Shown: positions 2,969 to 9,467 of the stretch, in pieces
Layout: the number at the start of each line of letters is the position of its first letter
Numbering within the stretch: position 1 is the first letter of the stretch
DNA from: a virus
Taxonomy: Duplodnaviria > Heunggongvirae > Uroviricota > Caudoviricetes
Virus record (IMG/VR): IMGVR_UViG_2534681835_000035
Length of the DNA stretch: 9,885 nucleotides
Direction: 5' to 3' (one strand)
Position numbers and translations under genes: made by a program
The notes under the pieces: model-generated
Databases searched by the model: none
The model's input: only the letters and a program-made list of their open reading frames with translations
What the model was told of the DNA's origin: nothing

Positions 2969-3313
2969 TTACTTTAATAATTTCAGTGCCTTTACATCAA
3001 CTTCAACACTGCTCAGGTCTTTATCAATTTCACCCTCAATTCTTACTTTGTCTTTCGGAGAAACATTCTGCCCGGCCCATACGCTGTCATCAATATCCGT
3101 GACAATTGTCCCGCTATTGTCACGAAACTCATAACGTTCATCACCCACTTTTTTAACGATGCTCCCTTCAAGGATAACCCATGCATCATCCTTCAGTTCT
3201 TTTGCCTGCGCTACTGTTGAACGCTCTGCTTCTGGCCCCTGGAAACCACCCTGCTGTGCAAAAGCGCCAAAAGACACACCGGAAATAAGTGCTGCAATCA
3301 ATACCTTTTTCAT
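2969..3313 (-). CDS. YgiW/YdeI (BOF) family periplasmic OB-fold protein with signal peptide
   Basis: 114 aa, MKKVLIAALISGVSFGAFA-QQGGFQGP..., with a signal peptide and AFA-QQ cleavage site, and the family pattern GGFQGP...W..L.G.IV......Y.F.D.SGTI..DID...W.G..V.PKD.V.I.GE.DKD..SVE.DVK. AGAGGA Shine-Dalgarno 7 nt before the ATG. Confidence 0.85.
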   Translation of the reverse strand: MKKVLIAALISGVSFGAFAQQGGFQGPEAERSTVAQAKELKDDAWVILEGSIVKKVGDERYEFRDNSGTIVTDIDDSVWAGQNVSPKDKVRIEGEIDKDLSSVEVDVKALKLLK

Positions 3314-3432
3314 TCATAGTCCTCTTTCAGAGATGAACATTCAAACAGCATTTTCAGTATGGTAAAGCGCGGGTGCGTTGAGGATGCCTGACACATCAGA
3401 GGTGGCGGGAGATTACTCCCCCGCCTGGTCTC

Positions 3433-3588
3433 TTACTTCTCAGATTCGTAGTCTACGAAGACAGCGACCTCCGTCTGACCGGTTCGGATTCGCACCTCGC
3501 AGAGGTCTTTCCTCGTTACCAGTGCCGTCACTATGACGGTTAAACAGATGACGATCAGGGCGATTAACATCGCCTTTTGCTGCTTCAT
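3433..3588 (-). CDS. hokD: Hok/Gef-family type I toxin (HokD/RelF-like small membrane peptide)
   Basis: 51 aa, MKQQKAMLIALIVICLTVIVTALVTRKDLCEVRIRTGQTEVAVFVDYESEK, near-identical to my recollection of RelF/HokD and carrying the Hok signature (LT/VTRK.LCE..IR.G..EVA.F..YES). AAGGAG Shine-Dalgarno 9 nt upstream of ATG 3588. The ORF track extends the same frame to an upstream ATG at 3645. Confidence 0.85.
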   Translation of the reverse strand: MKQQKAMLIALIVICLTVIVTALVTRKDLCEVRIRTGQTEVAVFVDYESEK

Positions 3589-3878
3589 AGCCTGCTTCTC
3601 CTTGCCTTTCGGCACGTAAGAGGCTAACCTACATGTGTTCAGCATGGATTGAGCCTCAGATTAATGTTAAGCGTCTTGCAGGACGCGTAATGTTAACTGG
3701 GGCTTTTCTCTATCTGCCGTTGGTGTTCATGCCCGAGGCAGATAGCCTCAAGCACCCGCTGCAATTCTACTTAACTATCCTTTTCCCGCAAACCGTTTTT
3801 ATCCCCAGCGGCAAATCGAATACTCCACCAGCGCCACCGCCATCGCAATTCCTACCGTTGTGAATGCTTCAGGCCAGG
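3589..3878 (-). promoter_or_regulatory. Long hok leader: candidate promoter, upstream in-frame mok-like start, and likely site of an antisense Sok-like RNA on the plus strand
   Basis: 290 bp separate the upstream gene from hok. Candidate minus-strand promoter TTGCGG-N16-TAGAAT (plus 3791..3764). Stable inverted repeats in the leader (TATCTGCC 3711..3718 with GGCAGATA 3737..3744; GCGTC 3671..3675 with GACGC 3682..3686) and an imperfect hairpin just 3' of hok (3404..3425). By analogy with hok/sok loci, an antisense RNA would be transcribed rightward from about 3600..3700, but its ends are not determined. Confidence 0.35.
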
Positions 3879-4437: not shown

Positions 4438-4656
4438 TCAGTTTTCCTTATACGGATTAATTTTATTGTGCAGTGCGCTGAATGATTCCCATGTCACATC
4501 GGTATATAGCTCAATAACTGGTTCAAATGTCCTTCCAATTATCCAGACCAGTAATAGCGGGGATATCGGTATCATCAACACTATAAACAGAATGAAAAAC
4601 AGAAACTCTGTTGTTCTGCTCTTTCGTGGGTAATTTTTTTCTAAATAATGTTTCAT
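4438..4656 (-). CDS. Small hypothetical membrane protein (one predicted transmembrane helix) in an AT-rich patch
   Basis: 72 aa with hydrophobic core FLFFILFIVLMIPISPLLLVWIIG. Tightly coupled to the DUF551 gene. The ATG is preceded by AGGAGG, then a CCGCCC-GAAA-GGGCGG hairpin, then 6 nt. Confidence 0.55.
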   Translation of the reverse strand: MKHYLEKNYPRKSRTTEFLFFILFIVLMIPISPLLLVWIIGRTFEPVIELYTDVTWESFSALHNKINPYKEN

Positions 4657-4662
4657 TTCTTA

Positions 4663-4684
4663 CCGCCCTTTCGGGCGGCCTCCT
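4663..4684 (-). other. Shine-Dalgarno, stable hairpin, start codon arrangement in the 5' UTR of the small membrane-protein gene
   Basis: Minus strand: AGGAGG (4684..4679), perfect 6-bp stem with GAAA loop (4678..4663), UAAGAA, AUG (4656). The unfolded SD-to-AUG spacing is about 22 nt and becomes about 6 nt if the hairpin forms. Confidence 0.35.
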
Positions 4685-4783
4685 GATGTTCTGAGGGTGC
4701 AGGAATCCCTCCGGTTAAGGATTTAATAAAAATCGTTTCTGATTTAAATCTTCAGTATTTAGTTGTTAGTTGGTTTATCGCCT

Positions 4784-5095
4784 TTATGCTTCAGCCTTAT
4801 TTCGCAACCAGACACAAACCGGGCCATCTTCCGTATCATGAATGGAACCAATAAACCAGCCATCGCCCTCTGGTCGTTCCGGTTCCCATGCAGAAATATC
4901 AGCATCACACGCATCAAGGTCAGCACATCCTTCATCTCTGAAGCAGAGGACGTATTGAAGATTATTTTCCTCCATCCAGGCGTTAAACTCTTCCGTTGAA
5001 ATATATTCCCGACCATCACAGAATTTTTCATATTCAGGATGTGTCCAGTAGCCATATCCGTCACGAACTACCGGCATTTCTTTAATTTTACTCAC
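4784..5095 (-). CDS. Hypothetical small, strongly acidic protein
   Basis: 103 aa with about 24 Asp/Glu against 9 Lys/Arg by my count (DEGCADLDACDADISAWEPERPEGDGW...). GTG start at 5095 with AGGAGG 6 nt upstream, overlapping the previous gene's stop (GTGAGTAA). Confidence 0.6.
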   Translation of the reverse strand: MSKIKEMPVVRDGYGYWTHPEYEKFCDGREYISTEEFNAWMEENNLQYVLCFRDEGCADLDACDADISAWEPERPEGDGWFIGSIHDTEDGPVCVWLRNKAEA

Positions 5096-5315
5096 TGTTA
5101 ACCTCCTGCAACGCTACACGATACGCCTTCTTTATCCACGCCTTACTGCCATATAATTTCGTCTTCATAATAAACACACCTGCACGACTCGCCGATATCC
5201 CCGGACAGGTTAACAGCACAGCATCCACCACACGGTTATGCTTCCGAAACTCCATTACAGTACTGCTGATAACCACCTGCCCCACCGGGCCGTAATCCTG
5301 ATACAGGATTTTCAC
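5088..5315 (-). CDS. Hypothetical 75-aa protein
   Basis: ORF translationally coupled to both neighbours (4-nt overlap upstream, 8-nt overlap downstream). No recognisable family. Confidence 0.5.
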   Translation of the reverse strand: MKILYQDYGPVGQVVISSTVMEFRKHNRVVDAVLLTCPGISASRAGVFIMKTKLYGSKAWIKKAYRVALQEVNSE

Positions 5316-5593
5316 GCAGACACCCTCCTGTCGAAATAAACGTAGTTATTCACTATGCGCAGCGGCATGCCTAATTTTCTGGCAATTTCCCTTCTTTGCA
5401 TGCCTCTCTGATGCAGTTGCCGCGCCAGCTCAATATCACGCTGAGAATATTTTGCCGACGGGTGAAAATCACCACGTAACATCATGCTGATGCCCAGCTC
5501 CCGTGCCTTCGTTCTCACTGCCGCTTCAGTTCGTCCGATAAGTGCGCCAACGCTTTTTACCTTCATCGTTCCCGCACACTGCCGGAGTATCAT
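5312..5593 (-). CDS. Hypothetical small protein with two helix-turn-helix-like segments; start uncertain
   Basis: ATG at 5593 (MILRQ...); alternatives are ATG 5566 and the ORF-track start 5716, which would overlap the upstream gene by 91 nt. HTH-like segments SVGALIGRTEAAVRTKARELGI and QRREIARKLGMPLRIVNNYV. Confidence 0.45.
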   Translation of the reverse strand: MILRQCAGTMKVKSVGALIGRTEAAVRTKARELGISMMLRGDFHPSAKYSQRDIELARQLHQRGMQRREIARKLGMPLRIVNNYVYFDRRVSA

Positions 5594-5625
5594 GATTTCC
5601 GCCCGGCACCACGTCTTCCACCCAC

Positions 5626-6360
5626 TCACCGCTGCTGTTCTCTGGTGGCGGTAATATCCCGGAGAATATCCCGGCACTTGTTCAGCTCCCGCAGCGCGGC
5701 GCAGACTCGCTCCCACTTCTGAACCTGACCTTTTGCCCGGCGCAGCTCGCGGTTAGCCACATGCAGCGATGGTAAAATCAGACCATCCGGATGCTTTCTG
5801 GTGAACGACGGCTGTGACTGCACTGTGACCGCCACACTTTCCGTTTTTATTTCTTCCTGTGTTTCCGCTTCCCCGACTGGTAACGCAACACCTGCTGGCT
5901 GAGGAAAGGCTTTACCATCCGTTTCCGCTATGGATGCGGCTTTCGGCTCTGCCGGTAAATCAGCGCCCGGTATGCAGTACCGAAATTTACCGCCCTGATT
6001 CACGCGAATCAGACGCCCTTTGCTGATTGCCATGGCCAGTGATGAATTCGCCCGGCGGGAGGTAATCCCGAACATCAGTGCCAGCTCATCCGCCGTTTGT
6101 GGGCCATGATGTTCAATCGCCTCAGTCAGCATTTGCGCTGTCACTTTCGGTACCGGTGACACTGGTTCACTTTCACCAGCCTGAATCAGCCACCACATCG
6201 AACCCTTGTTATCCGCTTCACCACGGCGCTTCAGTTTCCACAGTTCGTTGACAGCATCTTCGCGGCTGATTCCAAGGCGCGATGCCACTACCTGTGAAGA
6301 GGCTTTTTTCAGTGCTTTCAGTGCGTCAAATACAGTTTCCATTAAAACGTCCTCCAACAA
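5626..6360 (-). CDS. YdaW-like (DUF1627-like) prophage protein with two winged-helix-like repeats
   Basis: 244 aa, 3 nt downstream of the DnaC-like gene, as ydaW follows ydaV in Rac. Internal repeats [24 protein letters not shown] and [29 protein letters not shown]. Family name is from memory. Confidence 0.65.
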
Positions 6361-7116: not shown

Positions 7117-7770
7117 TCACCCCCTGAATCCCGGCGGAATTTCGGTATCCGGTTCAGAAATATGATTCACACAACGCTGGTTGTTCGTGCCGCTTACCGG
7201 GAGCAACCAGGGGTTTTCAAAATTCCGGTCCGGCCCAAAAAACGTCGTCGCTCGCTGAACAAATTCCGTTCCCGTTTTCCCGGTAGCCGCCAGGTATCTT
7301 GCGTAACGCCTCACACCATCCAGTATGGCCTCTGGTGGCACCCCCTCGCGTAATCTGGCCTTCCAGGCACTGAAAGCGGATTTCTTCGGGTTTGCCCCAG
7401 CACGCAACGGGTATTCCCGCCAGACCTGTTCGAACACATCCGGATAATCCACTCGTCCCACAGGCTGCCCGGTGTTTTCCGGGACTACCCGATCGGCTTC
7501 CCGCTGAATGGCGGAATCGGCTTCAGGCTGCTGCAGTTGGTGTGATTGCTCCGGCCTTGCGGTCATCACCTGCTGCACAGCGCCCGAATCGGCTTTCAGC
7601 GCATACGCTGAATCGGCTTCCGGTGTCGTGCCTGCTGGCTGACCAGGATTGACGGTCTGAACATCCCCTGCCTGGTTCGTGGCGTTTTTTACGCCATGGA
7701 CCATAGTGTTTTGATCTTCTTGATCTGTATCTTTATCTGTATCTTTATCTGTCGTGACTCGTCGTGACAT
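7117..7770 (-). CDS. Replication-initiator-like protein, C-terminal part (ORF2), possibly the 3' portion of a single gene frameshifted relative to 7745..8188
   Basis: 217 aa, ending 6 nt before the DnaC-like gene. C-terminal domain DYPDVFEQVWREYPLRAGANPKKSAFSAWKARL...TGKTGTEFVQRATTFFGPDRNFENPW resembles a replisome-organiser C-terminal motif. The 5' end lies inside the iteron array and encodes TDKDTDKDTD from tandem repeats. Confidence 0.6.
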   Translation of the reverse strand: MSRRVTTDKDTDKDTDQEDQNTMVHGVKNATNQAGDVQTVNPGQPAGTTPEADSAYALKADSGAVQQVMTARPEQSHQLQQPEADSAIQREADRVVPENTGQPVGRVDYPDVFEQVWREYPLRAGANPKKSAFSAWKARLREGVPPEAILDGVRRYARYLAATGKTGTEFVQRATTFFGPDRNFENPWLLPVSGTNNQRCVNHISEPDTEIPPGFRG

Positions 7771-7799
7771 GTGCGTGACATTTCGTGACGCGCCGTGAC
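7723..7799. repeat. Putative replication-origin repeats: 2.5 copies of a 12-bp tandem repeat (ATCTGTATCTTT) followed by five direct CGTGAC iteron-like repeats at 10-11 bp spacing
   Basis: CGTGAC at 7753, 7763, 7774, 7784 and 7794. The 12-mer is at 7723..7734 and 7735..7746 with a partial copy at 7747..7758. An AT-rich tract lies immediately to the left (about 7700..7750). Confidence 0.6.
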
Positions 7800-8188
7800 A
7801 ATCGCCATTTTGTTCCCGCTTTCTTTCCCTCTCTCGCTGCGCCCTCTTGCGCTCTGCAGGAGATTTTGCGGTTTGACGAAATATTGCCGTTGTCCTCTTT
7901 AAGCACCTGGCGTTTTTCCCATCCAGTGATTAAATCACCATCAAGTACCCGCCCCTGCATCGTCTGCAAAATTGAATCAATTACCTCTTCTGTCACGTCG
8001 AGCGCACTTGCCAAATCTTCTGTCGTGACATCAATGTGACCTCGCGTGACATTTCGTGACGCGCTCACCAGGAGGTGGATATACACTGCCATCACTGTTG
8101 CAATTGGCTGCCCTGACACCCTGGCAATTGTTCGCCACTTAGGGTCATTTGGCATGTCATGCCATAATCTGAGCCAGGCGTTAGCCAT
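7745..8188 (-). CDS. Replication-initiator-like protein, N-terminal part (ORF1)
   Basis: ATG at 8188 with AAGAGGTGA Shine-Dalgarno (the ORF track starts at GTG 8194). N-terminal MANAWLRLWHDMPNDPKWRTIARVSGQPIATVMAVYIHLL resembles phage replication-initiator DNA-binding domains. The ORF ends inside the first iteron cluster and overlaps ORF2 by 26 nt in the +1 frame. Confidence 0.6.
   Translation of the reverse strand: MANAWLRLWHDMPNDPKWRTIARVSGQPIATVMAVYIHLLVSASRNVTRGHIDVTTEDLASALDVTEEVIDSILQTMQGRVLDGDLITGWEKRQVLKEDNGNISSNRKISCRAQEGAAREGKKAGTKWRLSRRVTKCHAHVTTSHDR
7992..8064. repeat. Second iteron-like cluster: CGTGAC at 8024, 8045 and 8055, a TGTGAC variant at 8035, and an inverted copy GTCACG at 7992..7997
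   Basis: The 20-mer CGTGACATTTCGTGACGCGC occurs at both 7774..7793 and 8045..8064. Spacing is again 10-11 bp. Confidence 0.55.
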
Positions 8189-8259
8189 ACTCACCTCTTC
8201 TGATACCGAATCTTTTTACTCACGAGTTGCCGGAAGCGATTCGATACGGCTATTGTCAG

Positions 8260-8950: not shown

Positions 8951-9049
8951 AGCTACTCCTTAGTAAACACAGCAAGAATACCCACAGGTAAACAAAAGTC
9001 AATACCCTTGGGTTGTTTACCTTGCGGTAATCGCATCTATTATTTACCT
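8951..9049. promoter_or_regulatory. Divergent promoter/operator region between the Cro-like and repressor genes (OR-like)
   Basis: Three TACC-N4-GGTA-type inverted repeats: 8979..8990 (TACCCACAGGTA), 9003..9014 (TACCCTTGGGTT, one arm imperfect) and 9018..9029 (TACCTTGCGGTA). Leftward PR-like promoter TTGACT (plus 9002..8997), 16-nt spacer, TATTCT (8980..8975). Rightward PRM-like -10 TATTAT (9038..9043) ends 6 nt before ATG 9050, suggesting a leaderless repressor mRNA. Confidence 0.55.
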
Positions 9050-9467
9050 ATGGACAAATATGAATTTAGACGACAACAACTCATCAAAATTCGTGATGAG
9101 AAATGCGATGGTAAAGCGGTTAACGTGGCCAGAAAGATCGGTCGCGAGCCTTCTTATGTATCAAGAATGTTGTACCCAGAGGGGAAAAAGGAAAAAACGG
9201 ATCGCTGATGATATGGTGGAGATTATAGAAGAGTCCTTTGGGTTACCCCGGGGATGGATGGATGGTATCGTTTCATCATCAACGAACACAGCCTCCAATT
9301 ATGAAACAAGGGTTCTAACGCCACGACAACGTATTTTTTTAGATCTCTTAGACGAACTGCCAGAAAGTGAAGCGGATAACTTATTAAAAACTCTTGAAGA
9401 GAAAAAACAGTATTACAATATGATCTACGAAGAAATCCGTAAAAAGAAAGCACAAAACGCATCATAA
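9050..9467 (+). CDS. CI/RacR-like prophage repressor, reading frame interrupted by an apparent +1 frameshift in the G4A5G2A6 tract at 9181..9197
   Basis: Frame A (ATG 9050) encodes an N-terminal HTH (KAVNVARKIGREPSYVSRMLYPEGKK) and stops at 9206..9208. Frame B continues from about 9198 with protein-like sequence RIADDMVEIIEESFGLPRGWMDG...LLKTLEEKKQYYNMIYEEIRKKKAQNAS to 9467. Removing one A from the A6 run would fuse them into a protein of about 138 aa. Confidence 0.6.

Follow-up and report, generated by a model that had tools for sequence, protein, structure and literature searches.

Three overlapping early-region genes of an Escherichia coli O111 prophage as probable exchangeable modules, with a predicted portable acidic domain in the third

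Three small overlapping genes lie on the minus strand of a 9,885-nucleotide (nt) stretch of viral DNA, the window of this study (Caudoviricetes; IMG/VR record IMGVR_UViG_2534681835_000035), whose source is a lambdoid prophage of the Rac/Qin type from Escherichia coli O111. In their order along that strand they are named here gene 1 (5312–5629), gene 2 (5088–5315) and gene 3 (4784–5095). On balance, we favour an account in which they are three coupled early genes, each exchangeable on its own, with a third product that most likely binds a host protein. Transcription of the trio would begin at the early-right promoter upstream and take in the replication genes, and its translation would be coupled through overlapping stop and start codons. 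The three genes would not form one machine. In E. coli prophages, gene 1, for a predicted DNA binder, would travel with gene 2, which would encode a small basic ACT-like alpha/beta protein; gene 3 would encode a free-standing copy of a widespread, acidic and portable phage domain. By analogy with other early phage proteins, the latter most likely binds its host partner early in infection or at induction, for host take-over or counter-defence.

An earlier note on this DNA had described three uncharacterised open reading frames (ORFs) that overlap by 4 and 8 nt, placed between the replication module and the nin region, and this description largely stands. Genes 1 and 2 share 4 nt (GTGA, 5312–5315), genes 2 and 3 share 8 nt (5088–5095), and the only revision concerns gene 1, more likely 105 than 93 amino acids (aa) long. 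Genes 2 (75 aa) and 3 (103 aa) both start with GTG and are each preceded, on the minus strand, by an AGGAGG ribosome-binding site embedded in the 3′ end of the gene before: 5324–5329 within gene 1, 8 nt before the gene 2 start, and 5102–5107 within gene 2, 6 nt before the gene 3 start. A consensus scan of the coding strand between 4300 and 6500 found neither a sigma-70-like promoter nor an intrinsic terminator, which fits read-through from the early-right promoter. The overlaps, the internal AGGAGG sites and the lack of promoter and terminator consensus make up the layout of translationally coupled and co-transcribed genes, which would presumably be expressed as such. The position is as described too. 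The minus strand carries, in order, YdaS-like, YdaT-like, initiator, DnaC-like and DUF1627 genes and the trio, followed by DUF4014, DUF551, hok/sok, a YgiW-family gene, DUF968, RusA and a Q-like DUF1133 gene. In RefSeq, the trio of the E. coli O111:H- 11128 prophage is labelled ‘DNA-binding protein’ (WP_000603384, 93 aa) and twice ‘hypothetical protein’ (WP_000699809, 75 aa; WP_000034815, 103 aa). The trio stretch is 100% identical to that prophage and to those of many other strains, O111 and related, and at least 80% of a 1301-nt query is found in 513 of 5426 complete E. coli genomes. Each gene of the trio shows purifying selection. Pairwise Nei–Gojobori estimates against distinct alleles give median ratios of non-synonymous to synonymous substitution rates (dN/dS) of 0.13 for gene 1 (105-aa frame), 0.09 for gene 2 and 0.14 for gene 3, values that mark all three as genuine coding genes.

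The trio does not travel as a unit. A set of 105 loci centred on gene 3 (25 from genomes of different species and 80 viral contigs) contains the order gene 1–gene 2–gene 3 in 26 cases, exclusively those with a gene 3 at least 98% identical to that of the window, an identity that denotes the same prophage lineage. Genes 1 and 2 are missing from 50 loci with gene 3 at 91–95% identity. They are both missing from 23 of the 25 other-species loci as well, and two Pantoea/Erwinia loci carry a gene 1 homologue downstream of gene 3. Order is thus kept in near-identical prophages and lost across divergent genomes, an outcome that the earlier note had named beforehand as speaking against its operon as a conserved unit, and that claim is not supported. 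What it had said of the slot, typical for accessory cargo, is borne out by the hypervariable surroundings of gene 3, whose immediate neighbours belong to 24 upstream and 27 downstream families. In Rac-SA53, for instance, gene 3 is preceded by lygF, rac19, ead and rac21; phage D6 lacks gene 2 (its orf95, considered as a gene 2 homologue, is not one), and its gene 1 homologue lies 2 kb upstream of gene 3; and in Serratia phage Parlo the gene 3 domain forms the C-terminal part of a protein of 250 aa, with a gene 1-like gene next in order. Judged from these comparisons of sequences, the post-replication slot is a mosaic recombination hotspot and the trio a set of separately exchangeable modules.

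On the same comparative grounds, genes 1 and 2 appear as the sole pair tending to stay together, and this only among fairly close relatives. They are adjacent and overlapping in 48 of 48 E. coli-type loci (gene 2 at least 93% identical), including alleles with gene 1 at 82–86% and gene 2 at 93–97% identity. Where gene 2 is at 93–97% (21 loci), gene 3 comes directly next in six loci, is separated from it by an inserted methyltransferase-like gene plus an ORF of 84 aa in another six, and is absent from eight with enough downstream sequence. Farther away, all 28 loci with gene 2 at 55–61% identity (Fels-1 type, beside xis/int) have neither gene 1 nor gene 3; gene 2 relatives show seven upstream families in all, and those at 55–61% are preceded by unrelated genes. 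The Fels-1 genes flanking the gene 2 homologue were considered as relatives of genes 1 and 3, in the sense of a mobile three-gene cassette, and are unrelated to them. As a separate observation, sister prophages (loci L145, L147 and L153, positions 3221–3709) carry an S-adenosylmethionine-dependent methyltransferase-like gene of 157–162 aa with a DPPH motif, which either replaces gene 3 or sits between genes 2 and 3. In L147, the ORF of 84 aa after it ends in a C-terminal part with a CPFCG motif, and Pfam does not call it Lar.

Gene 3 belongs to a large family. Its product matches phrog_1372 over its full length (E 2.8e-56, residues 1–102 on profile positions 55–158 of 194), and an exhaustive profile search with a limit of E 0.001 retrieves 780 representative clusters, of which 260 reach 1e-10 or better. 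Relatives found by tblastn occur in 83 phage records, hypothetical in all, including Burkholderia phages phi1026b and phiE125, phages of Pseudomonas and Vibrio, Klebsiella Lastavirus, Erwinia phages, Yersinia phage PY54, the P1-like D6 and mEp213. The protein is strongly acidic: 24 Asp and Glu residues (23%) stand against nine Lys and Arg, for an isoelectric point (pI) of 4.2 and a net charge of exactly −15, the value that had been estimated before. Negative charge is a conserved trait of the family, with a mean of −15.7 (standard deviation 2.0) in 102 close homologues and of −13.3 in 130 diverse representatives, 92% of which are at −8 or lower. Near-invariant positions run from the N-terminal to the middle part (R11, G15, W17, H19, P20, W40, W70, P72 and P75) and through the C-terminal part (G77, G79, W80, F81, I85, G91, W96 and R98), and include a D-x-E-D-G hairpin tip. 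The protein is a portable domain of predicted alpha/beta type, referred to as PHROG 1372. Searches found no Pfam entry, no solved relative and no recognisable fold for the protein, and no literature on the family; its diagnostic motifs are not mentioned in what was searched, the supplements of an accessory-gene screen included.

Several candidate identities of gene 3 were set aside. A Cys2His2 metal site (H19, C26, H86 and C94), near-invariant in enterobacterial homologues, is excluded because C26 varies in the wider family. A divergent DUF551 is not the answer either, with no Pfam match and an hhalign probability of 0.1% against the window's own DUF551 protein. Matches to PDB sequences are Strep-tag look-alikes in tagged constructs; residues 12–20 of the protein (YWTHPEYEK, 5036–5062) resemble Strep-tag II (WSHPQFEK). 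Two further observations touch the family. Erwinia phages Stean, Pavtok and PEp14 each have two separate copies, that is, paralogues within one phage genome. In 17 loci (L060 and 16 similar ones), an extremely acidic ORF of 60 aa (MRKFKIIIETGIAGGDFEDEFEVDDDATPDE...) lies directly downstream of gene 3, and this post-replication slot seems often to hold small acidic proteins.

Portability is also seen in protein architecture. Many family members are 200–520 aa long, with the domain at the N- or C-terminus and varied, unrelated partners, mostly phage modules of unknown nature. Rare partners comprise a Lar-type restriction-alleviation zinc ribbon (three representatives), an Rv2179c-like exonuclease (two), RdgC, a DHH/DHHA1 phosphoesterase, a Tad2-like domain (one) and others. 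The Lar-type and Tad2-like fusions are hints from sequence, and they were not reproduced in isolated phages or viral contigs. True single-ORF fusions are SopranoGao_66 of Klebsiella phage SopranoGao and Parlo_049 of Serratia phage Parlo. SopranoGao_66 was considered as a fusion with a Tad2-like domain, and its tail is an unrelated helical segment; its neighbour, considered as a gene 1 homologue, is not one either, as the tblastn piece crossed a stop codon. A Lar-like neighbour of gene 3 in viral contigs was likewise not reproduced.

This behaviour is reminiscent of the Ead/Ea22-type proteins (the C-terminal domain of lambda Ea22, and DUF551 in the Ea22 of Stx phages and in YfdS). Work on Ea22 describes mosaic scaffolds with portable acidic C-terminal domains, for which binding to a host protein is proposed (PMC10834534). 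Gene 3 is likewise found in a lambdoid early region and encodes a small, acidic, mixed alpha/beta protein, and its domain too is found both by itself and at the N- or C-terminal end of varied scaffolds. It has no homology to DUF551 (PF04448).

Turning to gene 1, its product is basic (pI about 11) and has two helix-turn-helix (HTH)-like segments, in agreement with the first description. HTH_7, HTH_23, HTH_3 and Sigma70_r4_2 all match one segment, the second HTH, and all stay below Pfam gathering cut-offs (the best, HTH_7, scores 21.9 bits versus a cut-off of 23.8). Precomputed Pfam assignments of its homologues are PF13384, PF08281 and PF02796, and the whole protein matches phrog_323, ‘transcriptional regulator’, with E 1.1e-25. 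The family profile has 2lvs as its best natural PDB match, in two stretches (E 0.0015). By pattern reading, the first HTH unit (W...AE...IG-x-LIGRT-x-x-AVR-x-KA) looks Myb/SANT-like. Predicted DNA binding by gene 1, as a small tandem-HTH protein, is well supported. Small HTH proteins of the nin region, such as lambda NinH, and the resolvase-type HTH (HTH_7/HTH_23/Sigma70_r4_2) are comparable, the gene 1 product being likewise small, basic and encoded in the same part of the genome; unlike NinH, it contains a pair of HTH units and begins with a conserved W-x-RAE segment. Against NinH, hhalign gave a probability of 61% over 24 columns at the recognition helix, and NinH was dropped as a relative, the likeness being at the level of the HTH only. 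Matches of gene 1 to PDB sequences are noise from TPR and designed-repeat proteins, and PADLOC returned for it a single noise-level match (CasR, E 0.031).

The true start of gene 1 is probably GTG 5629, giving 105 aa, and the RefSeq start at ATG 5593 (5312–5593; the longest ORF is 5312–5716) would cut off 12 residues. In an alignment of 22 homologues, the near-invariant W36, A39 and E40 (W-x-RAEI-x-I-x-RQCAG) lie upstream of ATG 5593, and the annotated proteins of other alleles begin with ‘MSGWK...’ or ‘MSRW...’. Over the 105-aa frame, the alignment to Pantoea and Erwinia homologues is gapless, with dN/dS of 0.08–0.10. The GTG overlaps, as GTGA (5626–5629), the TGA of the DUF1627 gene directly upstream (5626–6360, minus strand; 244 aa as the longest ORF and 238 aa in RefSeq; PF07789, E 8.7e-79). 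With this start, the coupled chain would therefore comprise at least four genes, DUF1627 and the trio.

Gene 2 encodes a basic protein (pI 9.8) of phrog_1001, predicted by modelling to be an ACT-like beta-beta-alpha-beta-beta-alpha sandwich. The predicted model resembles the ACT-type fold with about 13% sequence identity. No match was found to ACT sequence families in Pfam or NCBIfam, and none in PDB profile searches. With ACT domains (the regulatory domain of aspartokinase) and permuted BMC shell domains it shares topology only, and it has neither a Pfam ACT or BMC match nor an identified ligand-binding motif. Because two-layer sandwiches are very common, the ACT match may reflect convergence. 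On a technical side, protein database clusters at 90% identity lump overlapping neighbours, gene 2 under a gene 3 protein and gene 1 under a DUF1627 protein; the list of gene 2 homologues from a word-indexed search was near empty because the gene 2 cluster is represented by a gene 3 protein.

The linkage of genes 1 and 2 raises another explanation, in which these two, perhaps with the DUF1627 gene, constitute a small regulatory pair, with gene 3 as a bystander. An ACT-like partner would modulate the HTH binder, and the pair would tune early transcription, replication or the lysis–lysogeny decision. ACT-like folds are often regulatory ligand-binding or dimerisation modules, and the fold predicted for gene 2 fits such a module. 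The constant adjacency in E. coli-type loci agrees with this, as does phage phi367, which has, in another part of the genome, a gene 2 homologue of 40% identity preceded by a short DUF1627-like protein and a hydrophobic peptide of 41 aa. However, the alleles in which genes 1 and 2 are linked are close, so that linkage may be mere shared ancestry. The gene 2 relatives at 55–61% have unrelated upstream genes, gene 1 relatives in Vibrio phages, D6, Parlo and Pantoea occur without gene 2, and the ACT likeness is at the level of the fold only. Together, this makes a regulatory pair unlikely.

Gene 3 could alternatively be an early anti-restriction protein that mimics DNA, a role on which the earlier note had speculated, or more widely an anti-defence protein that occupies the DNA-binding site of an immune protein. 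Like T7 Ocr, ArdA and T4 Arn, it is small, very acidic and encoded in the early region of a mobile element, here a hypervariable accessory one; its charge is typical for such proteins and conserved in the family, which is found in many phages and as paralogue pairs in some Erwinia phages. Its fusion to a Lar-type zinc ribbon in three representatives and to a Tad2-like domain in one (the fusions not recovered in phages or contigs), and a methyltransferase-like gene just upstream of it in some relatives, point the same way. Yet it has no profile, sequence or fold similarity to Ocr, ArdA or Arn. Pfam, NCBIfam, PADLOC and PDB sequence and profile searches give no match to known DNA mimics, the predicted fold does not resemble solved ones, and no elongated rigid array of carboxylates is evident in the layout of secondary structure. 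DNA mimicry of this kind is accordingly quite improbable. It is tempting to go further and propose a new, widespread counter-defence family with an unseen fold, acting as a DNA mimic or another decoy against a conserved immune or DNA-processing protein of the host. This proposal is speculative and rather unlikely; if true, the domain would be deployed alone or fused to Lar-type zinc ribbons, exonucleases and Tad2-like sponges.

The preferred account of three exchangeable early genes, with a host-protein binder encoded by gene 3, has its own difficulties. Homology points to no function for any of the three genes, and the putative host-binding role of gene 3 draws on charge, portability and analogy. 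The best-conserved residues of gene 3 are, besides the D-x-E-D-G tip, aromatic residues, prolines and glycines, that is, structural ones, which an oligomerisation domain would fit as well. The gene 2 model comes from an alignment of five sequences, with two of five models confident. Finally, the recurrent pairings of gene 1 with gene 2, and of DUF1627 with gene 2 in phi367, could reflect a real functional pair. All these points weigh against the account.

Prophage accessory slots often carry defence, exclusion or toxin–antitoxin cargo, and a cassette serving the lysogen in this way would be in keeping with the hok/sok locus and YgiW-family moron nearby and with a weak match of the DUF1627 protein to Ren-like exclusion proteins; it is nevertheless very improbable, as PADLOC returns nothing credible for the trio (for genes 2 and 3 no match at all), Pfam and NCBIfam searches detect no domain of a toxin or antitoxin in it, the coding-strand scan reveals no promoter of its own, and gene 3 is also found among small early-type genes in Lastavirus SopranoGao and in Erwinia phages Stean, Pavtok and PEp14.

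Downstream of gene 3, the coupled chain ends at a spacer of 127 nt (4657–4783, minus strand). A GC hairpin in this spacer (4662–4679; fold z-score −1.94) is flanked by an AGGAGG and the start codon (ATG) of DUF4014 and lacks a U-tract. A segment upstream of DUF4014 (4654–4727), with no annotated feature, shows 92–97% identity among otherwise unrelated E. coli phages and could mark a recombination boundary or serve as a structured ribosome-binding region. Farther along lie a YgiW/BOF-family stress protein gene (2969–3313) and, adjoining it, a hok/sok toxin–antisense locus (3433–3757; Rfam sok, 113.5 bits), both typical morons in a nin-like region. At the start of the window, IS1203 (IS3 family) occupies 1–726, inserted in the Q-like DUF1133 gene, with an ALIL frameshift pseudoknot at 277–393; the exact junction is present in E. 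coli O111:H8 strain 8E (CP077465).

Upstream, in the initiator gene (7117–8194; 356 aa in O111 11128), one inserted nucleotide at 7876 relative to the reference breaks the frame into two ORFs. This frameshift may be real and inactivating, because the insertion is not in a homopolymer. The lambda origin lies within gene O, and five CGTGAC repeats spaced by about 10–11 nt inside the initiator gene (7753–7799) look like origin iterons. The divergent repressor-like gene (about 9049–9467, plus strand) is disrupted by two 1-nt deletions (9190 and 9192) relative to O111 11128, which are possible sequencing errors because they lie in A-run homopolymers.

The three-gene operon itself matters little, being ordinary mosaic cargo of a common E. 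coli prophage, and tight overlap of small phage genes is no evidence for a common function. For the O111 allele of gene 1, the RefSeq start is probably mis-annotated. The wider interest lies in gene 3, which represents a large and conserved family in phages of Enterobacteriaceae, Pseudomonas, Burkholderia and Vibrio, with neither a Pfam entry nor a literature. Its nearly invariant core motif, its conserved negative charge and its spread make this family a reasonable candidate for screens of host interaction and anti-defence.

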